DNA from: an uncultured Thermoplasmata archaeon
Lineage (GTDB): Archaea; Thermoplasmatota; Thermoplasmata; Lutacidiplasmatales; UBA184
Assembly (NCBI GenBank): GCA_963771555.1
Contig: CAVYTM010000003.1
Span: 500,610 to 564,609, forward strand
Reading direction: 5' to 3'
DNA: 64,000 nucleotides
Shown here: piece after piece, positions 7,720 to 63,644 of the stretch
Layout of the letters: each line of letters opens with the position of its first letter
Numbering within the stretch: the stretch's first letter is position 1
Program-made: the position numbers and the translations under genes
Notes under the pieces: model-generated
Database searches by the model: none
Told to the model about the DNA's origin: nothing
Seen by the model: the letters and a program-made list of their open reading frames with translations, nothing else

Positions 7720-7800
7720 AACCCCTTACGTGGGGCCGGGGCACACGCGCACGTTGACCCCGAGCCGCGGGAGGGCTTGAGCGAAAGTTTCAGTCCCAAC
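7720..7800 (+). repeat. att-like site A: left arm + 13-bp tRNA-Thr 3' core + right arm
   Basis: agccgcgggaggg at 7763-7775 is 13/13 identical to 9267-9279; right arm cttgagcgaaagtttcagtcccaac is 24/25 identical to 60314-60338. Confidence 0.85.
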
Positions 7801-7886
7801 ACCCCTCCAGCGAATTTTCCCACTGCGTGAGGGCGTCGGCGGAGTTCAATACCCTCCCGCTGCGGAGGTAGCCTGGCGGTCGGGGC

Positions 7887-8633
7887 ATGGGAGAGTATCT
7901 CGACGTCAACGGCGTCAGGACCTACTTCGAAACTCGGGGGAAAGGTGAACCAGTCCTCCTTCTCCACGGTGGGGGTGGCACTGTCGAGTCACTTTACGCG
8001 CAGGCTGACGAGCTGTCCAAGTTCTACTCCGTAGTGCTGCCGGAGAGACGATGGCACGGACGGTCCGCGTGCGTAGGAACCGAGCTGACGTACGAAATCA
8101 TGACGGCAGACACGATCGCTCTCTTGGACGCGCTGAAAGCACGGAAGGCGCATCTGATTGGCCACAGCGATGGGGCCAACGTCGCAGCGATGATCGCGCT
8201 AAAGCGTCCGGAACTCGTGCGGAAACTGGTGATGATCAGTGGCAACTTCAACTCTGACTACATGTCCGCCGAAGGCAGAGCTTCGCTCGGTCGGCTGACG
8301 GTGATTGGCCTGCGCGAAATATTCCCTGCTGTGGTCGACATGTATTACAAGGTCGTTCCGAACGCCGATGAACGATTCCCGATCTTGCTGGAAATGTTGA
8401 AGAAACTTTGGACCTCCGATTGGAGAATATCTTCTGAGGATTTAGGTCGAATCGGCGCTCGCACGCTGGTCATGTCGGCGGATCGGGATATGATTCCGCT
8501 GGCTCACACCCTTGAACTGTTCCGGTCCATCCCCCCAGCTCAGCTCTGTGTGATTCCGAATGCGAATCACCTCCTGGTGATGGAAAGTCCCGAAGCGGTG
8601 AACAGGGCGATCCTCTGCTTCCTCGAACCGTGA
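7887..8633 (+). CDS. Alpha/beta hydrolase
   Basis: LLLHGGGG, GHSDGA nucleophile elbow, C-terminal H (ANHLL). Confidence 0.9.
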   Translation: MGEYLDVNGVRTYFETRGKGEPVLLLHGGGGTVESLYAQADELSKFYSVVLPERRWHGRSACVGTELTYEIMTADTIALLDALKARKAHLIGHSDGANVAAMIALKRPELVRKLVMISGNFNSDYMSAEGRASLGRLTVIGLREIFPAVVDMYYKVVPNADERFPILLEMLKKLWTSDWRISSEDLGRIGARTLVMSADRDMIPLAHTLELFRSIPPAQLCVIPNANHLLVMESPEAVNRAILCFLEP

Positions 8634-8689
8634 ACTCCCCCGATGGGAGTCGGTGGGATGGCCAACCCTCCCTGTGCGAAAGTACCGGG

Positions 8690-8746
8690 CGGATGCCCTC
8701 GTGGACACGGAGCCGCGGGAGGACTTTAGCGATAGTTCGAAGCCCT
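8690..8746 (+). repeat. att-like site A2 (degenerate copy)
   Basis: gagccgcgggaggactttagcgatagttcgaagccc: core 12/13 to tRNA-Thr and 30/36 to site C at 62441. Confidence 0.75.
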
Positions 8747-8823
8747 TTCAAAAGGATGGGATTCCTCGGCGGGCGGCTACCGATCGGCATAGCCGACGAC
8801 TTGTTAGGCAACCCACGGGATTC

Positions 8824-9162
8824 TCATCGCTCGACCGGCTTGGACGAACCCAGGGAGCGCTCTGGAGCCGCTCCCGGTTTCGCCGTGGACTTCAGGACGT
8901 AATCGAAGAATCGGTAGACCTGTCCATCCTCGGCGGTCCATTCGGCGCGGAGGCGCGTCCTCTTCTCGACCTTCCGGAGAGCGGACAGGACCGAGCGGTT
9001 GAGGTCCTTCGCGCTGCCCCCTTCCATCGCAGCCTCGACCACGAACTCCGTTCCCTGCTCTCGGATCTGGCCGCCGGGGAACACTTCTCCGAGGATCGGT
9101 CGTATCCGCTCGAGGCTATCCGTGCTCACTCGGGCTACGAGTCGGAATCGACTTGCGGTCAC
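8824..9162 (-). CDS. Hypothetical protein (112 aa)
   Basis: Clean ORF with protein-like composition; TATA-like ttaaat about 30 bp upstream. Confidence 0.65.
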   Translation of the reverse strand: MTASRFRLVARVSTDSLERIRPILGEVFPGGQIREQGTEFVVEAAMEGGSAKDLNRSVLSALRKVEKRTRLRAEWTAEDGQVYRFFDYVLKSTAKPGAAPERSLGSSKPVER

Positions 9163-9266
9163 CGAGCCACCTCAGTTAGACCGGCCCCCGCGATTTAAGG
9201 AGCCCCGGGTCATGAGAGTGAAGCACCCATTGCCAAAGGGCCGGGCGCACGCCCGAGGTGACCGCC

Positions 9267-9340
9267 AGCCGCGGGAGGGATTTGAACCCTCGGCCTGCTC
9301 CTTACCAAGGAGCCGCTCTGCCAACCTGAGCCACCGCGGC
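9267..9340 (-). tRNA. tRNA-Thr(GGT)
   Basis: Cloverleaf: GCCGCGG/CCGCGGC acceptor, GCTCC-TTGGTAA-GGAGC anticodon arm, GAGGG-TTCAAAT-CCCTC T arm; CCA not encoded. Confidence 0.95.
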
Positions 9341-9341
9341 G

Positions 9342-10232
9342 TCAGTCCCGAGTCGACGTCTCGTCCTTATTCCGCTTTCCCATCGAGCGCGCCTTCGCGT
9401 CCTTCGCCCAGGGGAAGCCCTCGGAGGCGGCCTCCCAGCCCCGGCGCGACATCGGGGCGGAGGCCCGCTTCTCCAAGAAGGCCCTCATCCCCTCTTTCTG
9501 CCCATCGGTTCCGAACAGCTGAGCCCAGAGGTCGAGCTCGTAGCCGAGTCCCTGATCGATCGCTGGGTCGAGCGCTTCGAGGAGGGCGTACTTCGCCGCT
9601 GCGAGCGCGAGGGGCGGCTTCGTGGCCAGCTCCTCGGCGAGCGCGAGAGCGCTCGTCAGTAGCTCCGCACGTGGAACCACACGATCAACGAGGCCCTGAG
9701 CGAACGCTTCGGACGCCTTCACCGAGCGCCCGGTCATGATCCACCGGCGAGCGCGCGCGGCACCGACCCTACGTGGAAGTCGTCGTGTCCCGCCCCACCC
9801 GGGCATCACCCCAAGATTGATCTCGGGTTGGCCGAACTGGGCATCCTCGCTCGCGATGATGAAGTCGCACGCGAGGCAGACCTCGCAGCCTCCCCCTAAC
9901 GCGACGCCGTGGACAGCCGCTATCACGGGGAGCGACAGGCGTTCGATTTGGCGGGTGACCCCTTGTCCCAGCCCCCCGTGGACCCGCGCCCCCTGCCGGT
10001 CGAGAGGAGCCATCTCGCGGATGTCCGCACCCGCGGCGAACGCCTTCTCGGCGGCACTGGCCAAGACGACCGTGCGAGCTTCGGGGTCCTCTTCGGCTTC
10101 CGTGAGGCGGACGGTCATTGCGTCGAGGACGGCTCGCGAGAGGACGTTCACCGGTGGGTGGTCGAGCGTCAGGAGCACCGTTCCGCCCCGTCGCTCGTAG
10201 CGAACCAAATCTCGGGCCACCGCCTCCGTCAT
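9342..10232 (-). CDS. Enoyl-CoA hydratase/isomerase
   Basis: AFAAGADIREM, ALGGGCE, FGQPEINLGVMPGWGGT crotonase motifs. Confidence 0.92.
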   Translation of the reverse strand: MTEAVARDLVRYERRGGTVLLTLDHPPVNVLSRAVLDAMTVRLTEAEEDPEARTVVLASAAEKAFAAGADIREMAPLDRQGARVHGGLGQGVTRQIERLSLPVIAAVHGVALGGGCEVCLACDFIIASEDAQFGQPEINLGVMPGWGGTRRLPRRVGAARARRWIMTGRSVKASEAFAQGLVDRVVPRAELLTSALALAEELATKPPLALAAAKYALLEALDPAIDQGLGYELDLWAQLFGTDGQKEGMRAFLEKRASAPMSRRGWEAASEGFPWAKDAKARSMGKRNKDETSTRD

Positions 10233-10285
10233 CGGCGGCGCCGACCCGCGCCGGCCTATTTATCTCGGTCGGCTTCGGGCGATTC

Positions 10286-11335
10286 GTGAAGAGTGTCGTC
10301 ACCACCTGGTTCGGAACGTTCCTCCTCGACGGGGATGAGGTCGTGAGGGCGGTTCCCGCACCGGTCGAATCGACGCCGCTCGCCGAGCGAGCCCATCGCC
10401 GGCGCGAAGGCAGGCTCACCACCGAGGAGGAGGAGCTCCTGCACGGCGCGGAGACCTCCGGGTGGAGGACCCGCGATCGACGCCTCGCCGAACACGGGCT
10501 GCGCTACGACCCCGACGCTCCCCTCGCTCTTCCTGCCTCGGTCACGGTTCCCGACCGGGCGATCCTTGGGGTCGCGCTGCTCGAGGAGGCGGGTCGCGCC
10601 CTGGAGGCCTCGTGGGATCCCTCCATCCATGTGCAGGAGGCGGTCCGAGCGGCGTCCGACCTCGACCGGGTCCACAACCTCGTTGGAGAGCGCCTCGGCA
10701 GTTGGGTCTCACGGGACTTTCCCGAGCTCGACCCGGGCGACCACGCGCGAGCGGCCCGCGCTGCTACGGGTGGAACCTCACGGCCCGAACTCGGACCCGC
10801 CGACCCCGGACTTCTCGAAGCGAGGCGGCAACTCGGCGAACTCTACCGCGCGGTGACCGAGGCGCGCCGCGCCCTCCAGGAGGCTGTCGATGCCTCCTCG
10901 CCGCTGCGGACCCCGAACCTGACTGCTCTCTTGGGGCCCGAACTCGCGGCGCGGATGGTCGCCCAGGCGGGAGGCCTTGACCGGCTCGCGCGGCTCCCAT
11001 CGAGCACGGTTCAGGTTCTCGGCGCAGAGCGGGCCTTCTTCGAACACCTGCGGGGCCACGCGCCCCCGCCGCGCCACGGGCTTCTCTTCCTTCACCCGGC
11101 TGTCCAATCCGCTCCCCGCGCGGAGCGAGGAAAGCTCGCCCGTGCTCTCGCGGGCAAGGTGGCCATTGCCGCGCGGCTCGACCACGCGGGGAAACCGGTC
11201 GACCCGACCCTCGGCGCCGCTTTCGAGGCGCGTAAGGTCGAAGTACGCGCGCGAAGAGGGCGACCGGGCCGACCCGCCGCGAGCTCCGAGCCCGGTTCAG
11301 CCCTTCCACTTGACCGTGCAACCCGCGACCGGTAG
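10286..11335 (+). CDS. nop5: Nop5/Nop56 family C/D-box RNP protein
   Basis: TPNLTALLGPELAARMV..AGGL.RLA.LPSSTVQVLGAE.AFF Nop domain; start moved to GTG at 10286. Confidence 0.85.
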   Translation: MKSVVTTWFGTFLLDGDEVVRAVPAPVESTPLAERAHRRREGRLTTEEEELLHGAETSGWRTRDRRLAEHGLRYDPDAPLALPASVTVPDRAILGVALLEEAGRALEASWDPSIHVQEAVRAASDLDRVHNLVGERLGSWVSRDFPELDPGDHARAARAATGGTSRPELGPADPGLLEARRQLGELYRAVTEARRALQEAVDASSPLRTPNLTALLGPELAARMVAQAGGLDRLARLPSSTVQVLGAERAFFEHLRGHAPPPRHGLLFLHPAVQSAPRAERGKLARALAGKVAIAARLDHAGKPVDPTLGAAFEARKVEVRARRGRPGRPAASSEPGSALPLDRATRDR

Positions 11336-11848
11336 CTCGGCGGGAGTCACCGGCGTTCCGGCCAAGGCCTGGTCCAGTGCCCGGGCGAGGTAGTGTTCGG
11401 TCGCGTGTTCCGGGTGCTGGTGGTCGTTATCGATCCGGCCCTGGAAGAGCAGCTTTCGGTCCCGGTCGAAGAGCATGGGGTGAGGTGTGACGAGCGCGCC
11501 GTAGGCGTGCGCGACCGCCTGGGTCTCGTCCTGGAGGTACGGGAAGGGGTACTTCTTCTCCGCGGACCGCCGGACCATGGAGTCGAGACTGTCCTCGGGG
11601 TAGGCGCGGGCGTCGTTCGAATTGATCATCACCATGCCGACCCCCTGGGATTGATACTTTCGGCCGAGGTCGAGCATGCGGCCCTCCCACGCCTGAACGT
11701 ACGGGCAGTGGTTGCACCAGAAGACCACGAGCATCAGCCGCCGGTCGGCGAAGTCCCCGAGACGGTACGTCTTCCCGTCGACGCCGTGCAAGGCGAAATC
11801 GGGTGCGGGATCCCCGGCATGCAAGCGGAATTCCGCGAGTTCGGCCAT
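11297..11848 (-). CDS. Thioredoxin family (AhpC/TSA-like) protein
   Basis: FWCNHCPYV, FPYL.DETQ.VA.AYGA..TP, GC.VKWK. Confidence 0.9.
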   Translation of the reverse strand: MAELAEFRLHAGDPAPDFALHGVDGKTYRLGDFADRRLMLVVFWCNHCPYVQAWEGRMLDLGRKYQSQGVGMVMINSNDARAYPEDSLDSMVRRSAEKKYPFPYLQDETQAVAHAYGALVTPHPMLFDRDRKLLFQGRIDNDHQHPEHATEHYLARALDQALAGTPVTPAELPVAGCTVKWKG

Positions 11849-11959
11849 GCGGTAACGAGCGGCGGCGTCTTCTTAGCTTTTCGAGTTCCCGTCCCGACCG
11901 ATAGGGTGGGTCCATTTCCGGTCCAGCGCGGTCGCCGCGAGCTTCCTCGAGCGGTCCGG

Positions 11960-12617
11960 GCCTCACGACCTGGGTCGACGTACGAGTTACGTGCTCGGAG
12001 AACGTTCGAACCGACGAGGTGATCCTACGGCGGGCGGTGCCCGCCGTTCGCGTGGCGGTCCTGACCGACCGCGCCGTTTCGTTCGGTGTGGGCGTGCCCG
12101 CGGAAGCGCCGTACCTCCAGAGGGCCGCCAAAGCCGGGGTCCCGACGGTCCGCCGCACCACGGGGGGACCGGTCTCCTGCACGCGCCGGGAGACCTCGCG
12201 TGGTCGGTCGTCCTTCCCCGCACCGACCCGCGCGTGGGGGACGACTACGTCCACGCGTACTCACGCCTCGGCGCCGGGGTCGTCCACTTCCTTTCCGAGC
12301 GAGGGACCTCGGCGTCGTGGACCGAACCTCCGGGAAGCGACCCGGACTACTGCCTCCTCAGCGCCCGCGGGTCGGTGTTGTCCCTGCAGGAGAAGGTCCT
12401 GGGAGGCGCGGCCCAACACCTCGCCGGGGGAGCCCTCCTTCACCACGGCATCCTCCCCCTCGAGCTCGACCGCGCCCTCCTCCGCAAGCTCTTCGCGCTC
12501 TCGCCGAAGGCCCTCGAGCGGTTGACCTCACTTCGCGAGCTCGGGATCGAAGGCACCCCCGATGCGCTCGCGTGGAAGCTCGCCGCGAGCATTTCGGACA
12601 CCCTGGCCCGGGGGTAG
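11960..12617 (+). CDS. Lipoate-protein ligase family (BPL/LplA/LipB catalytic domain), frameshifted in a G run at 12162-12167
   Basis: ENVRTDEVIL (N..DE.L motif), RRTTGG then TGLLH in the next frame, KVLGGAAQ, LLHHG; start codon not resolved. Confidence 0.75.
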
Positions 12618-12633
12618 GGGCAGGCGCGCGAGC

Positions 12634-13953
12634 TCACTTCGGTCGGACCGACCAGAGCGCTTCGGCGGCCGACTCGCCGTCCCGCCGGATGGCGGTCCAG
12701 CTCCCCATCGTCAAGCTCCGGTGGCGGACGACGGGCACGCCCCCGACATACACCGAGTCGATCGCCTCGTCCGACGCCGCGTAGGCGAGGTGGGAGACGA
12801 TCGCTTCCGGCCGCGCGGGAAAGAGCGAGGGGTGGTCGAGACGGAACAGAGAGAAATCGGCCTGCTTACCGACCTCGACCGAACCGAGGTCGGCGATGCG
12901 GCCGAGCATGCGAGCTCCGTCGACGGTGGCGAAATCAAGGAGCTCTTGGGCCGAGAGCGCGGTCGCGTCCCAACGCTGGTTCTTCTGGACCAGCCCGGCG
13001 ATGTGCATCTCGCGCAGCATCGAGAGGGAGTTGTTGCTCGCGACCGAGTCCGTCCCGAGTCCGACCAAGGCTCCCGCGGCACGGAGCTCCACCACGGGCG
13101 CCACGCCTCCGGACGCGAGCTTCAGGTTCGAGCTCGGGCAATGCGCGATGGCGACCCCCTTCCCCGCCAGCAGGCCGATCTCCTCGCCCGTCAGCCAGAC
13201 CGCATGCGCCGCGACCGAGCGAGGGCCGAGGAAGCCGATCTCGTCGAGCCACACGACGGGGCGTCGCCCGGTCTTGGTCTGGTGCTCGTTCACCTCTCGG
13301 CGGGTTTCCGAGAGATGATAGTGGACGAGGGTCCCGGCCTTCTCCGCGACCTCCCGGGCGCGTAGCCAGGTCTCCTTTCCGCAGACGTAGACGCCTTGGG
13401 GCGCGACGAGGGGGGAGACCCGCGGGTGCCCTTTCCAGCGTTCGATGAACTGGCGGGCGTTCTCGACCGGGACCCCCTTCTGCGTGGTGAGCTCGGGGTC
13501 GAGGACCGCCCAGCCGAGGAACCCGCGGATGCCGAGCGCCTCGACGGCTCGGGCGACCGCGTCCTCGAAGTAGTAGAGGTCGAGGAACGAGGTCGTGCCG
13601 GAAAGGAGCATCTCCGCGACGCCGGCTCGGGCTCCCGCTTCCACGTCCGTCTCGGTCCGGCGGGCATCCACGGCGAAGAGGGTCTCGAGGAACCCGGCGA
13701 GCTCCCGGTCGTCGGCGACCCCTCGGAGGAGGCTCATCGCGACGTGGGTATGGGCGTTGACGAAACCGGGAACGACCGCGAAATCCCGACCGTCGACGAC
13801 GGTCGCTCCTTCGCGGGACGCTCCCGGACCGACATGGGAGAATCGTCCCCCGTCCACGCGGAGGTCTCCGCGGAAGACGCGTCGTGAGGGGTCCTGCGAG
13901 ACGAGCAAGGCGTCGGTGATGACGAGCGGAGACGCCGTTTCGGGGCGCGCCAC
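12634..13953 (-). CDS. Amidohydrolase (MTA/SAH deaminase-like)
   Basis: PGFVNAHTH, HLSET, AHAVW, HCPSSNLKLASG, GLGTDS metal ligands; start moved to GTG at 13953. Confidence 0.88.
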   Translation of the reverse strand: MARPETASPLVITDALLVSQDPSRRVFRGDLRVDGGRFSHVGPGASREGATVVDGRDFAVVPGFVNAHTHVAMSLLRGVADDRELAGFLETLFAVDARRTETDVEAGARAGVAEMLLSGTTSFLDLYYFEDAVARAVEALGIRGFLGWAVLDPELTTQKGVPVENARQFIERWKGHPRVSPLVAPQGVYVCGKETWLRAREVAEKAGTLVHYHLSETRREVNEHQTKTGRRPVVWLDEIGFLGPRSVAAHAVWLTGEEIGLLAGKGVAIAHCPSSNLKLASGGVAPVVELRAAGALVGLGTDSVASNNSLSMLREMHIAGLVQKNQRWDATALSAQELLDFATVDGARMLGRIADLGSVEVGKQADFSLFRLDHPSLFPARPEAIVSHLAYAASDEAIDSVYVGGVPVVRHRSLTMGSWTAIRRDGESAAEALWSVRPK

Positions 13954-13961
13954 GGTTTCGC

Positions 13962-14960: not shown

Positions 14961-14961
14961 A

Positions 14962-16884
<1,923 letters not shown>

Positions 16885-17050
16885 TCAGGGCGCAAAATGG
16901 CCCAAAATTAGCGAGCCGAGCATGCGTTATAACGCTTGGGTTTCGGAGGAAAAATGAGCCTCGGGCGACCCTCCGGAACGAGGGCGTGAGGGAGCGCCCG
17001 GAACGGCCCCGAAATCGGGCGGGGAGGCCTCAATTCCGGCGTGAATCGGA

Positions 17051-18289: not shown

Positions 18290-18528
18290 GGCGGCATCGA
18301 GCCGTCAGATCCGGGGGCTCGAGATCCGGGACGCCCCCGACCTCGGTCGTTTCGCAGCGCGCGGCATTCGACCGTGCGAAAGCACTAGCCTCCCCTTAAC
18401 CTTCCCAACCCGAAAGGGCATCGGCGGCGGAGGACACGGGGCGACCGAAGCGGGGGCGCGGTGAGACCGCTCGGAATCCCTCCCCTCGACAACGCCTAAT
18501 ATCCTGTCCTCCCCTTCGAGCGACTCCC

Positions 18529-19095: not shown

Positions 19096-19098
19096 ACG

Positions 19099-51179: not shown

Positions 51180-51299
51180 GGGCAGCTCGAGCTCCGCGCC
51201 CACGATATGGCTTACCTCGGTCCCGGATTCTCCCGGACGCTCGAGGAAATGGTTCACCCGCCGCTCCGTGCGGGGCGGCGGGCGTTGGCGCTTACGCGC

Positions 51300-52448: not shown

Positions 52449-52650
52449 CCTGACCCCTCCTTCGGCCCCGAGCGGTTTCGTGGACCGAGAGGAGAGCGCG
52501 GGGCCAACTATGAAAACCCCCCGCTCGAGCCGCTTCCCCGCCGCCTATATGCGGAGCCGAACCGTGCACCGGAGTGTGACCGGCCGGACGCCGGACTTCT
52601 TGCGACTTGCCCGAGGTCCGGCGGGGTTCCACCACAAGGTTCGTTGGGTT

Positions 52651-55348: not shown

Positions 55349-55357
55349 CGGTCAGAA

Positions 55358-56287: not shown

Positions 56288-57609
56288 GGCGGTCCTCCCG
56301 AGTGCAACCAGGCCTGGACATCCAGTGCGGTATCGCGGACGTTCGTGGCCGAATAGCGGACCACCGAAACCCCTGCACTGCGCAGGCGCTGGACCGCCAG
56401 CTCCACCTGGCGCCGAACAGGTTCGAGGGCGAAGCCCATCGTCTGCGCCGCGAGGGGGTCCGGCTCCGGAGGGAAGAAGGAATCCACGTCCGGACAGAGC
56501 ACCACCAGCCGATGTCCCCGGGTCCGGGTCCCGGCGACCGCCTCCTCGACCGGCCCCGAGAGCGAAAGGAGCGTGGAGAACAGGACGATCGAGGTGGGGC
56601 CGGTGAGCCGCTCCGAGGCCGCGACGAGCGCGCCGGGGAAGTCGAAGGGAGCGGGGGAGAGGCCGACGCGGGCGAAGGCCTGGGTAAGGGGCTCCGTCCC
56701 GGCGGGCCCTCGCTGGGGAGGGACGTACTGGAGCACGCGGTCCGCGAAGACGAGCAGCGAGACTCGGTCCGCCCTTCCGACCGCCTGGCCAGCGATCACG
56801 GTGCCTCCTTCCACGGCCTGCTCGAGGCTCTCTTTGCCCGGAACGCCGAGACGCATGTCCCGGCTCGTGTCGAGCAGGACCATCAGGTCGGGATGCACCT
56901 CTTCCTCGTGTTCGCGCACGTAGGTCTTGTCGAGCCCCGACCTCCGCCAGGCGATCTTGCGGGCATCGTCGGACGGCTGGTACTCCCGCAGCGAGTGGAA
57001 CTCGCTGCCCGGCCCGGTCCGTTGACGGTACGCCTCGCTCGCTCCCCGGACACCGCTCGTGGGGATCGCGTCGGCCTCCTCGACCGAGAGCGCCGGGGTC
57101 ACCAGCACTTCCCAACGGTTCTCCAGTTTCGCCATCCGGAAGGCGAGCCCGAAGGGGTCGTGCGCGACGACGATCGTAGGCCCCACCCGGAACCGGCCGC
57201 GCTCTCGGGGACGATACGCGTAGGCAAGACGGATCGGGCCGGACGAAGGCCACCAGGTCAGTAGCCGTGGCGACCCCCCCGTCACTTCGAACGATTCGGG
57301 CTGCGGGTCGAAGACCTCGGCGTAGACCTCGTGACGACCGGTCATCTCGAGGTCGAGAGCCATCGACCCGACCCCGTCGATCCGGACCTCCGAACTGTTC
57401 TCGAAGCGCTGCCAGCGGAACCATTCGGGACCGAACTCGAGGGTCGCCCGGTCGAACGCGAGCAGCTCCGTCGTGACGAATCCGAGCACGGCGACGGGAA
57501 CGAGGAGGGTGAGGAAGTTGAGGGTCACGAGAGCGATCATGAGCGTCCCCATCCCGCCCACTACCGCCGACCACCCGAGGGGGCTCAGCACGACGCGGGA
57601 GCTCGCCAT
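56284..57609 (-). CDS. DUF58 (vWA-like) protein
   Basis: G.EF.SLREY.P.DD.R.IAW, LLDTS..M. Confidence 0.88.
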   Translation of the reverse strand: MASSRVVLSPLGWSAVVGGMGTLMIALVTLNFLTLLVPVAVLGFVTTELLAFDRATLEFGPEWFRWQRFENSSEVRIDGVGSMALDLEMTGRHEVYAEVFDPQPESFEVTGGSPRLLTWWPSSGPIRLAYAYRPRERGRFRVGPTIVVAHDPFGLAFRMAKLENRWEVLVTPALSVEEADAIPTSGVRGASEAYRQRTGPGSEFHSLREYQPSDDARKIAWRRSGLDKTYVREHEEEVHPDLMVLLDTSRDMRLGVPGKESLEQAVEGGTVIAGQAVGRADRVSLLVFADRVLQYVPPQRGPAGTEPLTQAFARVGLSPAPFDFPGALVAASERLTGPTSIVLFSTLLSLSGPVEEAVAGTRTRGHRLVVLCPDVDSFFPPEPDPLAAQTMGFALEPVRRQVELAVQRLRSAGVSVVRYSATNVRDTALDVQAWLHSGGPP

Positions 57610-57618
57610 GGGGTCCCG

Positions 57619-58695
57619 TCAGCGTGGGGCCGGGACCTGGTGCAGCGCGTCGGCGAGGATCCCGCGGACGACCTCGGAGCTTCCGCGCGGGTCCCCGGGC
57701 AGGAACCGCCGCCCCCGGAACTCGGGCCGAACGATCACGCGGTGGTTGAGGATGGGAAAGAGCAGTTCCTGGACGTCGTCCGGGACGACGTACGCCCGGC
57801 CCGCGAGGAACGCCGCGGCACGGGCGGCGCGCATGAACTGGACGGCCGCGCGGGGCGACCCTCCCGCCTCGAGGCGCTTGTCTAAACGGGTCGCCCCGAC
57901 CAGCGCGGTGACGTACCGGATGAGGTCCTCGTCGACGGTCACCGTTCGGATCGACCGTCGCAATCGGTCGACTTCGCCCGCGGACAGTACCTCCGACGTC
58001 GGCGGGACCGCGCCCGGGTCGAGCTGGGAGCGCACGATGGTCGCCTCCTCCTCCGGGCTCGGATACGTCATGATCCAGCGGAAGAGGAACCGATCGAGCT
58101 CCGCCTCGGGCATCGGATACGTTCCTTCCTGCTCGAGCGGGTTCTCCGTGGCGATCACGAGGAACGGTCGGGGCAGGGGGTAGGTATGCCGGTCGACCGT
58201 CACCTGCTGCTCCTGCATCGCCTCGAGGAGCGCCGACTGGACCTTCGGAGGAGCTCGGTTGATCTCGTCTGCCAGCACGACGTTCGCGAACACTGGCCCG
58301 GGCCGGTAGACGAACGAACGGTCCTTTGGGTCCATGACCAGACCGCCGATGATGTCGGACGGGAGCATGTCGGGGGTGAACTGGATCCGCTGGAACGAAA
58401 GGCCGAGGGACCGCGCGAATGTTCTCGCGAGGTACGTCTTCGCGATCCCCGGGACGCCTTCGACCAGGACGTGTCCCTCGACGGCAAGCGCGATCGTGAG
58501 CGCCCGGACGACCGTCCCCGCCCCGATCACTTCGCGCGCTACGGCGTCTTGGAGGCGGCCTAGAAGTTCCCGAGCATCGTTCGGCGAGAGGTCGCCCACG
58601 ACCTCGGACGGGGCCGTGACGATGTTCGGGGTCGCGCTCGTCGGTCCTGCTCCCACCAGCAACGAGTCGTCCGTGGGTCGGTCCGCCGGGGTCAC
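57619..58695 (-). CDS. moxR: MoxR family AAA+ ATPase
   Basis: EGVPGIAKT, RIQFTPD.LPSDI.G, DEINRA.PK.QSALLE.M.E, TENP.E.EGTY; start moved to GTG at 58695. Confidence 0.92.
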   Translation of the reverse strand: MTPADRPTDDSLLVGAGPTSATPNIVTAPSEVVGDLSPNDARELLGRLQDAVAREVIGAGTVVRALTIALAVEGHVLVEGVPGIAKTYLARTFARSLGLSFQRIQFTPDMLPSDIIGGLVMDPKDRSFVYRPGPVFANVVLADEINRAPPKVQSALLEAMQEQQVTVDRHTYPLPRPFLVIATENPLEQEGTYPMPEAELDRFLFRWIMTYPSPEEEATIVRSQLDPGAVPPTSEVLSAGEVDRLRRSIRTVTVDEDLIRYVTALVGATRLDKRLEAGGSPRAAVQFMRAARAAAFLAGRAYVVPDDVQELLFPILNHRVIVRPEFRGRRFLPGDPRGSSEVVRGILADALHQVPAPR

Positions 58696-59195
58696 GAGGA
58701 GGCCTCCAGCGAGGCCCAGACCGACCGGATCTCGGAGAGCTCCTCTTCGAAACGCCGGCGGGCAGAGGCCCGCCAAGCCGGTCGCCTCCAGCGGGACCAT
58801 AGGTCCGTACGGCGAAGGTCTTCCGCCCGAGAAGCGACTTCGTAAACGAGACCCAGCCGTCGGATGGCCCGGCAGGCGGTCTCGATCGAAGCGTCCCGGG
58901 GCGGGTGGAACGGGCGACCGACCGTCGCGATGTCGTGCAACGTCAGTCCGTGGCGGAGCGTGAGCTCGCGGACGAGCCGGTCGCGCACGGTGACCACGGC
59001 GCTCGTCAGCTTCTCGTGCCTCAAGTCCTGGTCCAAGACCGCGAGCGGGTCGACTTGCCAACCCTGCCGCACAGCGTACCCGGTGAAGCGGGGCGGCAAG
59101 GCGGGTCGAGCCCAGGAGTCCCATCCAACGGCGGCGAGGAAGGCGATCACCGAGGGAACGGCGAGCAGGAGTGGGCCGGAGAGCTCGCCGCTCAC
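58692..59195 (-). CDS. Hypothetical membrane-anchored protein
   Basis: N-terminal TM helix; overlapping start/stop with neighbours. Confidence 0.65.
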   Translation of the reverse strand: MSGELSGPLLLAVPSVIAFLAAVGWDSWARPALPPRFTGYAVRQGWQVDPLAVLDQDLRHEKLTSAVVTVRDRLVRELTLRHGLTLHDIATVGRPFHPPRDASIETACRAIRRLGLVYEVASRAEDLRRTDLWSRWRRPAWRASARRRFEEELSEIRSVWASLEASS

Positions 59196-59728
59196 GGCGA
59201 CTCCGGCTTTCGGCGATGGGAAAATGGCCAGGCAGACTCGGGGTGCTTATCCACGAGGGTAGCGGGTCGGCTCGGCTGGAACAGCGGGTCGTCGATCCGC
59301 CCAAGGGCGGTCTCCGAGTAGAGCTTGACTAAGAGGGCATCGAAGGCCGTCCGGTCCTCTTCGGTCGGTTGCGTCACCGTCCCGAACCTCAGGGGCTCGT
59401 AGCGGTGATACAATGCGGGCAACAGTTCTATCAGCTTCCCCATGTCCGGGCGCAAGAACTCCGCAAGGAACTGACGGTCGGTGCTTGAGGGAGGGACGGT
59501 GAGGCCATACGCCCGGACGGTGCCATCGAACGCCATTCGGTACGCCGTGCGGACCGCCAAGGTGTAGTCTCCGCTCCCGAGGAGGTCGCGGACCTTCTGG
59601 AGAACCGGGCTGGATTCCGGCTTCGCCTCCGGTAACGGTCCGTCAACAGAGGAGTGGGTCCCGGGGTTGCCCGCGGCAACGGCGGGTGTTCTCGTACCGG
59701 TCGGGAGCGAACCACCGGCCGCGGTCAT
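59192..59728 (-). CDS. Hypothetical protein (possibly DUF4129-like)
   Basis: AV..AY, T.R.FL, L..LY...RFG helical pattern; first gene of the MoxR operon. Confidence 0.55.
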   Translation of the reverse strand: MTAAGGSLPTGTRTPAVAAGNPGTHSSVDGPLPEAKPESSPVLQKVRDLLGSGDYTLAVRTAYRMAFDGTVRAYGLTVPPSSTDRQFLAEFLRPDMGKLIELLPALYHRYEPLRFGTVTQPTEEDRTAFDALLVKLYSETALGRIDDPLFQPSRPATLVDKHPESAWPFSHRRKPESP

Positions 59729-59973
59729 CCCACTGGTTCTGGACGTCTCGACGCCCCCGATGGGAAGGTTGCGGGGTGAGATATGCCCTTCTCGACCGGC
59801 CCGCGTGCGCAGGTCGCGGGCACACGAGAACCCTTAACCCTCGCTTCAACCCCGGGGGGGCGGCTCGCCCTAATTGGAGAGCCTCGTGGGCACACGGCCG
59901 TGGAGGAGAGGTGGCGCTCCACAGAAACGACCTTAGCACTTACTGCCCTACGAGCCACGGAGGTGGGAATCGA

Positions 59974-60195
59974 ATGAAGGAATACAAGATTCTGAAAGAG
60001 ATCGAGAACGCGAGAATGGGACCGAACAATCACCGGCTCCTCGAGAACCAGATCAACGAACTCGCCCGGGAGGGATGGGTGGTCAGTTCGTTCGGAGTAA
60101 GCCATTCCACGACCGCCACGGGGCTGCTGGTCACGACGAACGCGTGGTTCTGTGCCCTGCTGGAACGGGAAACACAGAGCGGCCGTTCCCGATAG
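59974..60195 (+). CDS. DUF4177-like small protein
   Basis: MKEYK..., LE..IN.LA.EGW.V, ..LLERE; SD ggaggtgg upstream. Confidence 0.7.
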   Translation: MKEYKILKEIENARMGPNNHRLLENQINELAREGWVVSSFGVSHSTTATGLLVTTNAWFCALLERETQSGRSR

Positions 60196-60290
60196 GAAGC
60201 CGGACCCGCGGGGTTAGCTCACGGAAAGCCTGGAAGGCGCGACTTGCGGGATCATCCAGCGGCCACAGCGCCCCGGCCACGACATCCCGG

Positions 60291-60338
60291 AGGAATTGCG
60301 GGCCGAAGGAGGGCTTGAGCGAAAGTTTCACTCCCAAC
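60291..60338 (+). repeat. att-like site B
   Basis: ggccgaaggaggg is 11/13 to the tRNA-Cys 3' end; right arm is 24/25 to site A; left flank ggaggaattgc resembles ggaggaactcc next to tRNA-Cys. Confidence 0.85.
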
Positions 60339-60446
60339 CTCTCGAAAACCCAACGAGTGCTTTTCGAGGACCTGCCTGTTTCAAACCTTCTAAGGGAACG
60401 GTCCGGGTGGGGTGCGGCTTAATCTAACCGAGACCAGTTTCGGGTC

Positions 60447-62435
60447 GTGGCCTCTACTCGAAGACTCGCCGCCATCATGTTCACCGACATGGTGGGCTCC
60501 ACCGCCTCGGCTCAAGCGAATGAGTCGCAAGCCCTCAAGCTCCGGGACGAGCAGTCGGAGTTGGTTCGTCCCCTCTTCCCCACGCACCATGGACGCGAGA
60601 TCAAGTCGATGGGGGATGGGTTCCTCACCGAGTTTGACAGCGCGCTTCATGCGGTCCAGTGCGCGATCGATATCCAGCAACATCTTCACGAGCGGAATTC
60701 ACAACCTGGCGTGGTACCCATCCAGCTTCGCATTGGGATCCACTTGGGGGACGTCGAACAGCGTCAGACCGACATCTTTGGCGACTCAGTGAACATCGCC
60801 GCACGGATCGAACCGCTCTCTTCGCCGGGCGGAATCTGCATTTCCGGTGAGGTGTTCAGTCAGGTTCGAAACAAGATTCCGAATCCGTTCGAAAAGCTTC
60901 CGCCGGCGACCCTGAAGGGGTTGCAAGGGCCGATCGACATCTACCGTGTTCTGCTACCATGGACCGTTCGCGAGCAGCCCTCCCGCGGCAACGGACCGAT
61001 CCGTCTCGCCGTGCTGCCCTTCACTAACATGAGCACGGACCCAGCCGATCTCTACTTCGCCGACGGCCTGACAGAGGAGCTGATCACCGTCCTATCTCAG
61101 CTCCGGGAACTTCGGGTCATCGCCCGCACGTCGGTGATGCCGTACAAGTCGAGCTCCAAAGGGGTGTCCCAGATAGGGGAAGAGCTCCGTGTTTCGTCGA
61201 TCCTCGAAGGAAGCGTCCGAAAGGCGGGAAACCGGCTTCGGGTGACCGCACAGTTGATCGACGTCGAGTCCGAGGACCACGTCTGGGCCAAATCGTATGA
61301 CCGACAGATCGACGATGTCTTCGCAGTCCAGGCGGAACTCGCCAAAGAGGTGGCGGATGCGTTGAAGATCGAACTACGACCGACCGAAACGGCGCGCCTG
61401 GAAGCCAGGCCCTCCGTGCGACCCGAATCTTATCTTGCGTATCTCAAGGGACGATCCGCCCTTCAATCCGTATGGAACGAAGAGGTCTTTCGGGGAGCGA
61501 AGCACCAATTCGAGCTCGCGCTATCCATCGATCCCGAGAACGCACGGGCTCATTCCGGGTTGGCGGATGCTACTATCCAACTCTGGTGGCACTACCGCGG
61601 TCGATCGGAGGGCGAGCGGGACCCGGCCATTCGAGAACATATCGAGCGTGCGCTGGAGGTGGACCCTGACCTGGCGGAGGCTCACTGCTCGCTCGCCCTC
61701 ATTCTGTGGGACGATTCGGACCACCGGCGGGCGGTTGAGGAGCTCCAGCTGGCCTTGTCCCTGAATCCGAGTTACGCGTACGCTCATTGGAGTTACGGGC
61801 ACCTTTTGTGGGTGTTTGACCGAGCCGAGGATGCCCTCGTAGAGTTCGAGCTCGCAGAGGAGCTCGACCCGAAATCGATGCAATTTCTGGTTTCGAGCGT
61901 AATGTTGCTGATTCAGCTTCGAAGACTCGATACGGCGAAGACCAAGTTGGAGAGACTCAGAGAGTTGGACCGAGACGGACCCACCCACCAAAGTTACCTC
62001 ACTTCCTATCAGTACGCTCGGTCGGACTTTGAGGGGGCTTTGCGGACCGCCGACCGATGGGACGAGCTCAATCCCGGAGCGTCCTGGCTTCGTCGCGTCC
62101 TAATCTACTCGGCGACGGGGAGGATCGAGGAGGCTCGGAAAGTGATCAAGCAACAGGAATCGAAGGCGGAAAAGCCGAGTCTCGAGGAGCTCGCCCGGTC
62201 GCATGCATTCGTTGGCGATCTCGATAGTTGCTTTCAGTACATGGACAGCGCACTCGAGGGCCACCAGCTGTCCATCCAATCCTGGCGTACCGATCCGGCG
62301 CTCGGACCGGTTCGCGCGGATCCCCGGTTCGGCCAGATCCTGAAGAAGTTGAACCTTGCCTATCCCTTGGCAACTGGGTCCCTTCGGGTCAGAGATCGCA
62401 CCCTTTGCTTGGAGCCCGCGCGCGGGCCCATGTAG
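60447..62435 (+). CDS. Class III adenylate/guanylate cyclase with TolB-like and TPR domains
   Basis: FTDMVGST, KSMGDGF, RIGIH.GDV, FGD.VN.AAR.E; LAVLPF.N, FADGLTEELI; TPR repeats. Confidence 0.9.
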   Translation: MASTRRLAAIMFTDMVGSTASAQANESQALKLRDEQSELVRPLFPTHHGREIKSMGDGFLTEFDSALHAVQCAIDIQQHLHERNSQPGVVPIQLRIGIHLGDVEQRQTDIFGDSVNIAARIEPLSSPGGICISGEVFSQVRNKIPNPFEKLPPATLKGLQGPIDIYRVLLPWTVREQPSRGNGPIRLAVLPFTNMSTDPADLYFADGLTEELITVLSQLRELRVIARTSVMPYKSSSKGVSQIGEELRVSSILEGSVRKAGNRLRVTAQLIDVESEDHVWAKSYDRQIDDVFAVQAELAKEVADALKIELRPTETARLEARPSVRPESYLAYLKGRSALQSVWNEEVFRGAKHQFELALSIDPENARAHSGLADATIQLWWHYRGRSEGERDPAIREHIERALEVDPDLAEAHCSLALILWDDSDHRRAVEELQLALSLNPSYAYAHWSYGHLLWVFDRAEDALVEFELAEELDPKSMQFLVSSVMLLIQLRRLDTAKTKLERLRELDRDGPTHQSYLTSYQYARSDFEGALRTADRWDELNPGASWLRRVLIYSATGRIEEARKVIKQQESKAEKPSLEELARSHAFVGDLDSCFQYMDSALEGHQLSIQSWRTDPALGPVRADPRFGQILKKLNLAYPLATGSLRVRDRTLCLEPARGPM

Positions 62436-62477
62436 ACCCTGAGCCGAGGGAGGGCTTGAGCGAGAGTTCGATTCCCT
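62399..62477 (+). repeat. att-like site C
   Basis: agccgagggaggg at 62442-62454 is 13/13 to the tRNA-Cys 3' end; both arms homologous to site A. Confidence 0.85.
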
Positions 62478-62572
62478 ACGCCCCAACCCGACCTGTCGGG
62501 GGGAGGGCAATTGTCGCTCGGAGCCCCTCGCCGCCGAATCCTTAACCGAAGCGCGAATCGTTCGACATTTGG

Positions 62573-63514
62573 GTGGGGGCTCACATGGGTGCCGGTCTAG
62601 AGGCGGCGAGCCCCAGCCGCTCCGTCTCCCGGGCGAGCCGATCTTTGCAACTCCTTTCGTTAGCCGCCGGCGCTCTCGCGATTTCGGGCGTCGGTGGCTA
62701 TTGGATCGCGGCCTCGGTCCAGTGTGGAATGTCTTCCACCCCGTTCCGACCGGCGGTTTGCCCACTGTCGAGCGAGCCTGTCGTGGAGATACTTGCTCTT
62801 CTCACGCTCGGCATGACCCTGGTCGCCGTCCCCGCTGTTTTGGGGGGCTTTGAGCGGGTGCTTTCCGTGGGCGCGGCCATCCTCTTCGTTGGAGTCTTTC
62901 AGTTCCCGGCGGGCGGCCTTTTCCCGACGTTGTTGCCCGACGCGCCGCTGTTCGATCCGCGCTTTCCCCCGTCGCTGTTCCTTCTCGTGTCGGGGTTCAT
63001 AGGATTCGCGGCGTCGGCCTGGGGTCGGAGCCGGTCCCCGACCGGGAACGGACCGTTCAATCGGCTCGCGACGGGGGCTGTCATGGTCGGCCTGACTGGA
63101 TGGGCCATGTTTTGGTTCCCCCCGTTTCTTGGAGGACCTGTCGACTCGGGCTGCCCGGTCTCGTTCGGGGGAGCATTACCCTGCACGGCACCCGCGTACT
63201 CTACGCTCACCCCGGTGCTGCCGGAATGGGCTTCGGCAACCTTGATCGCCTTCGCACTCGTGCTCGCGGTTCCGATGGTTTACCGCGCCCTAACACCGGT
63301 GAGCTTGGGCGCAGCTCTTTCAATCCTGGTCACCACCGACTACGTGTTCTGGATGTTCGGTTCCGATGATTGGGGGGCCGTCGGGGCCGCCATGTTCTGG
63401 TTGGCGGTGGGAGCGTCGATCGCGATCGCCGGCCTCTTCCAGAGCTTCTGGACGATGTATGTAACGCCCCGTTACGGGTCTTGGTGGTCGGCGACGCGGG
63501 TCAATCGGACCTAA
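62573..63514 (+). CDS. Hypothetical multi-TM protein with two Cys-loop halves
   Basis: About eight TM helices; two similar modules with paired-Cys extracellular loops (C.......C); TATA-like cttaacc about 30 bp upstream. Confidence 0.65.
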   Translation: MGAHMGAGLEAASPSRSVSRASRSLQLLSLAAGALAISGVGGYWIAASVQCGMSSTPFRPAVCPLSSEPVVEILALLTLGMTLVAVPAVLGGFERVLSVGAAILFVGVFQFPAGGLFPTLLPDAPLFDPRFPPSLFLLVSGFIGFAASAWGRSRSPTGNGPFNRLATGAVMVGLTGWAMFWFPPFLGGPVDSGCPVSFGGALPCTAPAYSTLTPVLPEWASATLIAFALVLAVPMVYRALTPVSLGAALSILVTTDYVFWMFGSDDWGAVGAAMFWLAVGASIAIAGLFQSFWTMYVTPRYGSWWSATRVNRT

Positions 63515-63571
63515 ACCTACCGTGCTTCGACGAGGGCGGCACGGTGCCGCAAGGATTCATGGAGGAACTCC

Positions 63572-63644
63572 AGCCGAGGGAGGGAATCGAACCCCCAGGA
63601 AACAGATCTGCAGTCTGTCGCATTAACCATTCTGCCACCTCGGC
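63572..63644 (-). tRNA. tRNA-Cys(GCA)
   Basis: GCCGAGG/CCTCGGC acceptor, ACAGA-CTGCAGA-TCTGT anticodon arm, GTTCGATTC T loop, T discriminator. Confidence 0.95.

Follow-up and report, generated by a model that had tools for sequence, protein, structure and literature searches.

The closest known concept for the loci described here is the tandem, site-specific accretion of integrase-less elements, as seen for CIMEs and in tycheposon islands. CIMEs (cis-mobilizable elements) are known from the ICESt1/ICESt3 family of Streptococcus (review PMC5704250). They are bounded by att direct repeats of the 3' end of their target, lack genes for integration and transfer, and reuse the regenerated target. 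The same holds for the arrays in the window, as we call the whole 64,000-nt stretch of DNA from an uncultured Thermoplasmata archaeon that was analysed: its units are flanked by att sites repeating the target 3' end, the tRNAs are intact, and the scanned units contain no integrase, transfer or replication genes. However, CIMEs have been described as decayed ICEs or IMEs, several kb long and few per locus, that depend on a resident ICE for mobilisation in cis (PMC5704250), whereas the arrays here, which belong to an archaeal genus, stack up to six or more one- or two-gene units at a locus and occupy five or more tRNAs in each genome; no cognate integrase-bearing element lies within or beside them, and the scanned ORFs show no remnants of an integration module.

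Tycheposon islands of Prochlorococcus (bioRxiv 10.1101/2020.12.28.424599) likewise lie beside specific tRNA genes, including Thr-GGT, and carry adaptive cargo; full or partial tRNA copies record successive integrations, newer elements displacing older ones inward. Tycheposons possess their own tyrosine recombinase and a replication module, and integrase fragments are spread across the islands, whereas the units scanned here have none of these and are much smaller. Integrons and CALINs, including those of archaea (PMC9668308), resemble the present arrays in holding mostly single-gene cassettes with similar cargo between recombination sites, and CALINs also in having no integrase nearby; the cassettes here are similarly discrete, mostly single-gene and variable in content between genomes. 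The arrays differ from integrons in lacking IntI, attI and Pc, in having several anchor loci per genome, in sites that are defined by sequence where attC is defined by its fold, and in cassettes that occur in both orientations.

A further point of comparison is provided by the tyrosine integrases that target tRNA genes, which, as Williams is said to have described in 2002, cross over at the T-loop/3'-end sublocation. With these enzymes, as here, a block of identity extends from the T-stem/T-loop to the 3' end, the tRNA is restored, and the fragment displaced from it marks the opposite end of the insertion. In such islands (Islander database, PMC4383910) the cognate integrase normally lies within the island at its edge, adjacent to an att site, which is not the case here.

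Composite sites behind tRNA-Thr and tRNA-Cys

A sequence-only reading of the window had claimed four internal copies of a short core with flanking arms behind tRNA-Thr and tRNA-Cys. These copies are non-random, the core-plus-arm pattern being observed four times against 0.03 expected by chance. Each site spans approximately 80 nt on the plus strand and follows one plan: a conserved left arm leads into the antisense of the final 12–13 nt of the local tRNA, and after a spacer of 12 nt comes an inverted T-loop-like motif (GTTCGAAKCCC). Site A (7715..7800) consists of a left arm (7715–7761), the core GAGCCGCGGGAGG (7762–7774) and the right arm GCTTGAGCGAAAGTTTCAGTCCCAAC; site C (8660..8750) comprises a left arm, the same core GAGCCGCGGGAGG (8710–8722) and the right arm ACTTTAGCGATAGTTCGAAGCCCTTTC. 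In the Cys array, site B (60255..60340) has the core GGGCCGAAGGAGG (60300–60312) with two mismatches, and site D (62395..62480) a left arm, the core GAGCCGAGGGAGG (62441–62453) and the right arm GCTTGAGCGAGAGTTCGATTCCCTAC.

The 3' ends of tRNA-Thr and tRNA-Cys, which on the plus strand read CAGCCGCGGGAGG and CAGCCGAGGGAGG, are identical at 12 of 13 positions, and the diagnostic core base follows the local tRNA (c in the Thr array, a in the Cys array), both as originally reported. Such tracking is expected under any model that preserves the tRNA, and alone it is no proof of a single integrase. The near-identity noted between the right arms of sites A and B amounts to 25/26 positions, and the left arm that had been recognised at A, C and the tRNA-Thr flank defines one conserved family of approximately 45 nt to which site D also belongs. 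Site B has a left arm of the element type, resembling the flank of tRNA-Cys. When the 1.83-Mb genome was scanned with a profile of the ~80-nt site, as the earlier reading had suggested, the sole matches were the four sites behind tRNA-Thr and tRNA-Cys (E 1e-15 to 1e-18), with the tRNA-Thr end as the next-best match; a broader profile added weak, isolated candidates only, such as C3:959248.

An alignment of 30 diverse sites showed the core, the fixed-length spacer and the GTT...CCC of the T-loop-like motif to be invariant; the chance of finding this motif in its allotted interval is approximately 0.002 per site. The block of tRNA identity common to all sites is 12–13 nt long and extends to at most 20 nt (through GATTTG of the T-loop) in one site of genome G006. 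This attP/tRNA identity spans the T-arm to the 3' end, as in the att sites of tRNA-targeting tyrosine integrases. The right arm of site C is present in more than 20 Thermoplasmata contigs, and the A-type arm is found in Thr and Cys arrays alike. Together, the evidence supports the view that the sites are att-type junctions arising from serial site-specific insertion at tRNA 3' ends. Separately, we considered a dual-target attP in which the sense half of the right arm matches the 3' end of a second tRNA; one 8/8 match was found, to tRNA-Arg(CCT), and the candidate was rejected as the overall distribution equals the shuffled null.

Two other origins for the arms and motifs were weighed. In most copies the left arm can be read in one frame as HPLxKGRAHARxDP-EPREG, and in that frame 42% of single-difference codon pairs are synonymous, compared with 17–24% in the other two. 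Such arms might be coding sequence left behind by a 'suicidal' integrase gene of the SSV type, in which attP lies within the gene and integration splits it. However, this codon-like bias is weak, indels or stops break the frame in several copies, and G006-type arms have stops 13–15 codons upstream. Neither tblastn nor Pfam revealed int(N) or int(C) fragments beside any cassette, and a profile of the translated site run against 1.84 billion proteins retrieved four short ORFs (51–92 aa) and no integrase or long protein. As no parent protein exists among these sequences, we rejected a split-integrase origin, to which we assign very little probability.

The second origin concerns folding. Each site forms an imperfect inverted repeat, GGGAGG(G) ... 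CCC(TCC), and a GC-rich palindrome followed by TTTG lies in the left arm, as might be expected of attC-like sites that fold as single-stranded DNA, or of tRNA-minihelix-like signals for RNA processing or termination, rather than of duplex att sites. Yet predicted DNA folding is no better than that of shuffled sequences for 9 of 10 sites (z −1.0 to +0.9; one at −2.0), the hairpins show no covariation (one double-change pair, below the shuffles), and neither an Rfam family nor the attC R''/R' consensus was matched. A role at the transcript level cannot apply to all sites, given that cargo is found on both strands. An attC-like fold, a GNRA hairpin and a tRNA minihelix were accordingly all rejected, and a folded or transcribed function for the sites appears most improbable.

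Organization of the two arrays

The target of the first array is tRNA-Thr(GGT) (9267..9340, minus strand), and synteny with all relatives begins exactly at its 3' end. Beside it lie an element-type left arm (9220–9266) and a tRNA-proximal cassette carrying a 112-aa ORF (8824..9162, minus strand) that matches no family. This cassette is presumably the newest of the array; its ORF is missing from the array of L135, in which the hydrolase cassette abuts the tRNA itself. The second cassette, between sites C and A, encodes an alpha/beta hydrolase of 248 aa (7887..8633, plus strand; Pfam Abhydrolase_6/1), with homologues in the tRNA-Thr arrays of other species at 75% amino acid and 81% nucleotide identity. 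Its leader contains a stacked partial site (7829..7866, plus strand) composed of GAGGG, a spacer and GTTCAATACCCTCCC; the homologous cassettes of L135 and L137 have it conserved in their leaders.

Beyond site A, a glyoxalase/VOC pseudogene (7183..7662, minus strand), interrupted by one in-frame stop and one frameshift as seen by three-frame translation, is a distal cassette in decay; glyoxalase genes recur as cassettes in other arrays. It is followed by a frameshifted sulfatase gene (5554..7057, minus strand), represented by two overlapping ORFs that correspond to the N- and C-terminal parts of a protein that is intact (500 aa) in L126, a second assembly of the same species. Further out lies a degenerate site (2677..2689, plus strand) that reads GAGCCGGGGGCGG and then GTTCGAG, with one mismatch to the core pattern. 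This site is approximately 240 nt from the break in synteny, has the correct orientation, and is preceded by TTCGA, as in L033; it is probably the oldest junction of the island. The conserved distal boundary is formed by rfbC (dTDP-sugar epimerase; 1913..2440, minus strand): positions 12–2440 of the window are collinear with L033 2755–5188 at 72–91% amino acid identity, and synteny ends at rfbC. In L033 the first site is found 113 nt past that end.

The second array lies behind tRNA-Cys(GCA) (63572..63644, minus strand), at whose 3' end synteny with relatives begins. Its first cassette encodes a 313-aa multi-pass membrane protein with no family match (62573..63514, plus strand), and its second a 662-aa protein with adenylate cyclase and TPR domains assigned by Pfam (60447..62435, plus strand). 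A homologue of the latter is a cassette in another Cys array (L071, 53% amino acid identity), and inverted homologues reside in Thr arrays (L038, 51%; G006, 39%). Cyclase-TPR cargo therefore occurs in both orientations relative to the sites, an observation that counts against the explanation that we favour in the Discussion.

On the far side of site B, a DUF4177-like ORF of 73 aa (59974..60195, plus strand), which is not at this position in G009 or G011, is probably the oldest Cys cassette, its distal site having been lost. A DUF4129-like gene (59192..59728, minus strand) marks the conserved distal boundary of the array; it is syntenic in G009, with one cassette next to it, and in G011, with 156 nt between it and the tRNA. 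Occupancy of the Cys locus thus ranges from nothing in G011, through a single cassette with an MNT/HepT toxin-antitoxin pair in G009, to two or three cassettes in this genome. Both arrays run further than first stated, the Thr island as far as its degenerate distal site. An age gradient is apparent, with degradation of the distal parts (site B, the site at 2677, and the glyoxalase and sulfatase genes).

Cargo of the cassettes

Each interval between sites in the window holds one convincing ORF, as the sequence-only reading had noted, namely the hydrolase, the 112-aa ORF, the cyclase-TPR protein and the membrane protein. The ORF accounts for 79–93% of the cassette in three cases and 61% in the fourth. 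Across 23 arrays, approximately 40 cassettes range from 556 to 3588 bp and carry one or two accessory genes apiece; relative to the sites, cargo is split about evenly between the two strands. About 31 cassette ORFs were scanned with Pfam, and the families detected include hydrolases, GNATs, VOC proteins, NUDIX, MarR, toxin-antitoxin pairs, Fic, AlkZ, ferritin, a methyltransferase and the cyclase-TPR protein. No recombinase, replication or virion gene was present among these ~31 ORFs, nor were remnants of integration or transfer modules, and tblastn with this genome's two tyrosine recombinases found no recombinase in the array loci. The earlier observation that the arrays lack a recombinase is borne out in the window and in the ORFs and loci so covered.

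Cassettes of mostly single genes with a content typical of integrons (GNAT, VOC, toxin-antitoxin, NUDIX) raise the question of whether the arrays are true integrons of the CALIN type, that is, attC clusters lacking an integrase, which are known to exist in archaea alongside complete integrons (PMC9668308). Their construction argues otherwise. Neither of the genome's tyrosine recombinases is an IntI, since both score below the TIGR02249 integron-integrase cut-off of 265 bits (144 and 45 bits), and neither is adjacent to an array. In the 30-site alignment the sites begin with the tRNA 3' end and lack RYYYAAC/GTTRRRY; their folding is not significant, cassette orientation is mixed, and the anchors are tRNA genes, with no attI beside an intI. 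With IntI, R boxes, folding and co-orientation all lacking, integron or CALIN identity is refuted, and we place its probability close to nil. The earlier description of the loci as integron-like serial capture at tRNA 3' ends therefore stands with respect to the att-type junctions and the outcome, and fails with respect to the build, for which IntI, the attC consensus and folding are absent.

Arrays in related genomes

Three independent assemblies of the same species share this arrangement, with both arrays identical in exact-protein look-ups. The arrangement is therefore no misassembly, and turnover is invisible at the strain level. In other relatives the 5' flank of the tRNA is shared from exactly the tRNA end, and the 3' side is different in every species. 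The proposal that cargo varies at these loci accordingly held between species, including one empty Cys site, and did not hold among same-species assemblies. As relatives carry other cassettes or an empty site, the loci are hotspots of gene capture.

Arrays of the same kind at tRNA-Thr(GGT) or tRNA-Cys were found in genomes of the same genus and in approximately 20 metagenome or MAG contigs; G006 has four internal copies behind tRNA-Thr, and the contigs have two to six. In this genome, analogous sites that have other cores and follow the same plan lie behind tRNA-Ala(CGC), tRNA-Leu(GAG) and tRNA-Lys(CTT). The hydrolase cassette keeps its ends between species: both the leader and the 3' arm show conservation in L135 (74/96 nt of the arm) and also in L137 (67/88 nt), where the cassette is internal, and in both species its neighbours are unrelated.

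Homologous cassettes also occur at more than one tRNA. A Cys cassette of G018 has a homologue in a Thr array, and the cargo of the Ala cassette shares 57% identity with cargo from a Thr-array cassette. Together with the arm family, these cases bear out the claim that one family of sites serves two tRNAs. The arms of such homologues at different tRNAs are mostly not shared, so the genes may be recruited repeatedly, with no hopping of cassettes.

A search for donor viruses or plasmids in IMG/VR, comprising three pattern scans and one integrase scan, returned chance coding matches or nothing, and no site copy was detected on free, plasmid or viral DNA. In some members of the genus, tRNA-Thr and tRNA-Cys are divergent and 25.6 kb apart. 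An inversion between them was considered as a sign of site activity and rejected, as its breakpoints, with coordinates judged by eye, seem to lie away from the sites.

Candidate enzymes and the origin of the units

Two tyrosine recombinases are encoded in the genome. The first, C3:573744, is classified as XerA (NF040815, 234 bits against a cut-off of 220), its gene lying 9.5 kb from tRNA-Cys on the 5' side; the other, C1:103018, is an unclassified enzyme of 318 aa whose gene spans C1:102634–103590. The genome's integrase adjoins a gene with 70% identity to a cassette gene of a Thr array, and no att-like site was found at the integrase locus. G006 has integrase-bearing DNA at a distance of 1.6 kb from tRNA-Cys, and G010 at approximately 9 kb from tRNA-Thr, with no distal att site for it within 17–28 kb. 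No integrase-bearing element stands in tandem with the cassettes in either array here or in the array loci searched.

These findings bear on whether the units moved as minimal cassettes or were trimmed after arrival. Each interval could be the trimmed remnant of a larger integrase-bearing provirus or integrative plasmid, that is, a CIME produced by decay, with no movement of minimal units. Tandem accretion followed by decay is well documented (PMC5704250, PMC6563490, bioRxiv 10.1101/2020.12.28.424599), and decay is evident from the pseudogenes, from distal sites that have degenerated and from a G006 cassette carrying an IS66 insertion; the integrase-bearing DNA near both tRNAs, the homologue of a cassette gene beside this genome's integrase, and the lack of turnover among same-species assemblies also fit. 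Against trimming stand the lack of recombinase, replication and virion genes in the scanned ORFs and in the tblastn searches of the loci, the compactness of the cassettes, with short conserved leaders and arms instead of random deletion scars, and the occurrence of the hydrolase unit with the same two ends in three species. We consider decay from larger elements unlikely, though it deserves the most weight among the alternatives.

Discussion

The best explanation, which we lean towards, is that tRNA 3' ends serve as reusable insertion points for minimal cassettes, with the recombinase acting in trans. The insertion points would be the 3' ends of tRNA-Thr(GGT), tRNA-Cys(GCA), tRNA-Ala(CGC), tRNA-Leu(GAG) and tRNA-Lys(CTT). 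The mobile unit would measure 0.56–3.6 kb and consist of one or two accessory genes and an attP-like site of approximately 80 nt, itself made up of the left arm, a copy of the T-stem/acceptor 3' strand, the 12-nt spacer and the inverted T-loop-like motif. Units would enter serially, possibly as circular intermediates, by conservative site-specific recombination within the shared 12–17 nt. Every insertion would restore the tRNA, displace older units outward and leave an attP-like junction between units, and distal units would afterwards decay. Since the units have no recombinase, the enzyme must be encoded elsewhere. It would most likely be a tyrosine integrase, supplied from the chromosome, with the unlinked 318-aa recombinase as a candidate, or from a helper element. 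Besides the mixed orientation of the cyclase-TPR cargo, several observations count against this view: no recombinase is linked to the arrays, the scans yielded no free, plasmid or viral copy of the site, both arrays are the same in three assemblies of the species, and cargo homologues at different tRNAs mostly have unlike arms.

In a more specific form, which we offer tentatively, the arrays could constitute a multi-locus cassette platform independent of IntI, in which units of 0.6–3 kb, each bearing a composite site and a conserved 3' arm, are gained, lost and passed between tRNA loci through the action of an unlinked recombinase in trans. Such a platform would be functionally analogous to the integron while consisting of different components. 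The system lends itself to direct testing, since both attP-like and attB sequences are available, as are two candidate recombinases. Because the sites are short and defined by sequence and the target genes are universal, the recombinase behind the arrays could serve archaeal genome engineering.

Standard island finders look for an integrase and will miss arrays of this kind. Even under accretion and decay, the arrays are precise hotspots of genome flux. If the cassettes do move as minimal units, they would represent a second, tRNA-anchored route of modular gene capture in archaea, independent of integrons, and would help to explain how the small-genome Thermoplasmata of soil and peat build up their complement of accessory enzymes, toxin-antitoxin pairs and signalling proteins gene by gene.

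Sites behind tRNA-Thr and tRNA-Cys

Read on the plus strand, the 3' ends of tRNA-Thr(GGT) (9267-9340, minus strand) and tRNA-Cys(GCA) (63572-63644, minus strand), as called by ARAGORN, are CAGCCGCGGGAGG and CAGCCGAGGGAGG, respectively. Four 13-mer copies with shared arms lie behind these tRNAs: sites A (core 7762) and C (core 8710) on the tRNA-Thr side, and sites B (core 60300) and D (core 62441) on the tRNA-Cys side. The sequence-only reading had identified these copies, and both counts bear it out: the core-plus-arm pattern gave 4 matches against 0.03 expected, and a whole-genome search with a profile of the ~80-nt site (1.83 Mb, 66% G+C, four contigs; window at C3:500610-564609) returned sites A-D only. 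A and B share 25 of 26 positions in their right arms. In all four sites the core base matches the local tRNA, as had also been claimed, a pattern that selection for acceptor-stem integrity would yield under any model. The same arrangement is found in three independent assemblies of the species, among which no strain-level polymorphism of the arrays was seen.

Sites of the source genome, same-genus genomes and metagenome contigs follow one plan, comprising a left arm, a stretch antisense to the tRNA's final 12-13 nt (the 3' strands of acceptor and T-stem), a spacer fixed at 12 nt but variable in sequence, and a sense-oriented T-loop-like motif, GTTCGAAKCCC. Across 30 diverse copies, there is little or no variation in the core, GTT and CCC; identity to the tRNA reaches 20 nt in one copy from the same-genus genome G006. 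Two left-arm types occur: a short one, GGGAAATC, and a conserved one of ~45 nt, ACCCnTTGnnnAAGGGCCGGGCRCATGCCCGnnTTGACCCCG, which directly borders the tRNA wherever the tRNA-proximal cassette is of that type.

Some cassettes are preceded by two or three partial sites stacked head to tail in units of ~42-56 nt without the core's acceptor part (window 7829-7866, and 4836-4990, 5301-5375 and 5162-5230 in the compared loci L135, L033 and L044, respectively). Such stacks suggest either the loss of intervening cassettes or crossovers that can take place to the right of the acceptor segment. Two isolated, weak site-like sequences of the source genome are distant from any detected tRNA: a Cys-type core with 12 nt and GGTTCGAAGC (C3:959248-959280), and a T-loop-like motif beside a gene paralogous to the SRPBCC-like cassette gene (C3:661450-661474). 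Between oxidoreductase and integrase genes of G006 (L020 6420-6445), GAGCCGCGGTTCAAGGAG resembles a Thr-type core fused directly to a T-loop-like motif and is oriented opposite to the local tRNA-Cys; this may be a chance likeness.

Other identities for the sites were rejected. They match no known RNA, and the sense half of the right arm as the 3' end of another tRNA was ruled out. One reading frame shows a peptide-like pattern and modest synonymous bias; as a test of a split integrase, a translated-site profile recovered four short ORFs only from 1.84 billion proteins, and several copies are frameshifted.

The tRNA loci across relatives

Ten same-genus loci were compared per tRNA: in all of them synteny with the 5' flank starts exactly at the tRNA 3' end, and the 3' side differs in every species. 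The distal boundary of the Cys locus is a conserved DUF4129-like gene (59192-59728). This gene lies 156 nt from tRNA-Cys in G011, an empty site; G009 has a single 1.96-kb cassette with an MNT/HepT toxin-antitoxin pair, and in the source genome two cassettes come after a DUF4177-like ORF. The distal boundary of the Thr locus is rfbC (1913-2440), collinear with a peat MAG (L033) in which the first site directly follows rfbC. A degenerate site at 2677 (GAGCCGGGGGCGG plus GTTCGAG) thus places the Thr island at 2677-9266; its further contents are a glyoxalase pseudogene and genes for a 911-aa membrane protein and a sulfatase. The sulfatase gene (5554-7057) is frameshifted in the source genome and ERZ25039509 and intact, at 500 aa, in the same-species assembly GCA_052326205.1 (L126 11176-12678); recent decay or misassembly would account for the frameshift.

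Four internal copies lie behind tRNA-Thr in G006. Arrays of 2-6 copies that end at tRNA-Thr(GGT) are present on ~20 Thermoplasmata-annotated metagenome or MAG contigs, and one contig array ends at tRNA-Cys. Among 301 genomes of the class, a site sequence model matched only the genus itself (seven genomes, including the source), apart from a single marginal match in another genus. The two tRNAs are divergent and 25.6 kb apart in G001, G006 and G009, and co-oriented and 54-65 kb apart in the source genome, G010 and G012, a difference that implies a large inversion or rearrangement; judged by eye from coordinates, its breakpoints seem not to lie at att-like sites.

Cassettes and their cargo

One convincing ORF was found in each of the four window intervals, as previously described: an alpha/beta hydrolase, a 112-aa ORF, an adenylate cyclase-TPR protein and a 313-aa membrane protein. 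Some 40 cassette intervals span 556-3588 bp, with one ORF each, sometimes two, on either strand. Pfam-assigned cargo includes enzymes (alpha/beta hydrolases, an esterase, an amidohydrolase), GNAT acetyltransferases, glyoxalase/VOC, NUDIX, MarR, ferritin, methyltransferase, AlkZ glycosylase, Fic, MNT/HepT, DUF981, beta-propeller, squalene-cyclase-like and cyclase-TPR proteins. The amidohydrolase gene of one cassette in the Thr array of G006 is split by an IS66-family transposase (478 aa; L011 2466-3902) into pieces at 1429-2403 and 3937-4296.

Evidence for discrete units comes from the hydrolase cassette. Homologues of the window gene in two other species (L135 and L137; 75% identity in amino acids, 81% in nucleotides) are likewise flanked by sites of the same family, and the leader, including the stacked partial site, and the 3' arm are conserved, with 74 of 96 and 67 of 88 nt retained from stop codon to next core. 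Its neighbours are unrelated among the three species: in L135 it is the last of six cassettes and borders tRNA-Thr itself, in the window the 112-aa cassette intervenes, and in L137 a 315-aa cassette follows. Because the source genome and L135 share 83% identity in the neighbouring core gene, enoyl-CoA hydratase, vertical descent of the cassette with later insertions and losses is possible; vertical or not, the changes around it fall exactly at the sites. The hydrolase (7887-8633) has a handful of Thermoplasmata homologues at 52-80% identity, and its next relatives, at ~40%, are soil-metagenome and actinobacterial proteins (Kitasatospora, Nocardia, Streptomyces), similarities that hint at a cross-domain origin of this cargo.

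Sites of one family at different tRNAs

Right arms of the A type are shared by the Thr array (A) and Cys arrays (B, D and L071). In G018, a small-ORF cassette beside tRNA-Cys is homologous to a Thr-array cassette (69% in nucleotides, at equal distance to the next core), and a degenerate internal site has a D-like arm. Cyclase-TPR cargo has one orientation in Cys arrays and the opposite in Thr arrays. The same plan with other cores recurs in the source genome ~0.7-1.8 kb behind tRNA-Ala(CGC), tRNA-Leu(GAG) and tRNA-Lys(CTT), with cargo encoding an SRPBCC-like protein, an alpha/beta hydrolase, an MBL-fold hydrolase and a GrpB-like protein; a gene that recurs among Thr-array cassettes shares 57% identity with the gene in the tRNA-Ala cassette, and their 3' arms are similar. 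ARAGORN called only 30 tRNAs in the whole genome, with two odd calls carrying four-base anticodons (C3:287624-287722 and a second call that wraps contig C2). Archaeal tRNAs with introns were probably missed, and further tRNA-anchored arrays may therefore exist.

Recombinases and a model for array growth

The genome encodes only two tyrosine recombinases, both outside the arrays. XerA (C3:573744-574223; NF040815, above cut-off) is 9.5 kb away from tRNA-Cys, in its 5' flank; synteny of this gene holds throughout the genus, at a distance of 5-9 kb on that side in nearly all members. The second, an unclassified 318-aa protein on contig C1, lies directly downstream of a squalene-cyclase-like gene (both genes within L029 58-2073, C1:101575-103590). 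The squalene-cyclase-like gene is 70% identical to tRNA-Thr cassette cargo in L045; the similarity does not extend to the flanks, and no att-like site was seen near the recombinase locus. A 74%-identical homologue of the 318-aa protein lies 1.6 kb from tRNA-Cys in G006. This unlinked recombinase and an unsampled helper element are the candidates for the enzyme; searches of viral contigs turned up neither a site copy nor a relative of the 318-aa protein.

The T arm and 3' end of tRNAs are a classical target of tyrosine integrases, and the most economical reading of the arrays is serial conservative site-specific recombination there. Every insertion would regenerate the tRNA and leave an attP-like junction, so that the newest unit would adjoin the tRNA and distal units would decay. 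The integron-like gene capture by an integrase in trans proposed from sequence stands in part: serial insertion at tRNA 3' ends is supported, and an integron was rejected, with no IntI, attC boxes, folding excess or covariation, and with mixed orientation.

This logic is shared with tandem accretion and CIMEs (PMC5704250), with archaeal integrated elements that form arrays (PMC6563490) and with tycheposon islands (bioRxiv 10.1101/2020.12.28.424599). In contrast to all three, the units here are minimal in size, the numbers of units and anchor tRNAs differ, and recombinase remnants are absent: a Pfam scan of ~31 cassette ORFs found no recombinase, replication protein or virion protein, and tblastn of the array loci with both recombinases gave no match, upholding the earlier claim on this point. 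These features make trans-mobilised minimal cassettes, which we consider somewhat probable, somewhat likelier than the decay of larger elements down to the present units, itself rather doubtful. The arrays would represent accretive, tRNA-anchored islands built of integrase-free single-gene cassettes.
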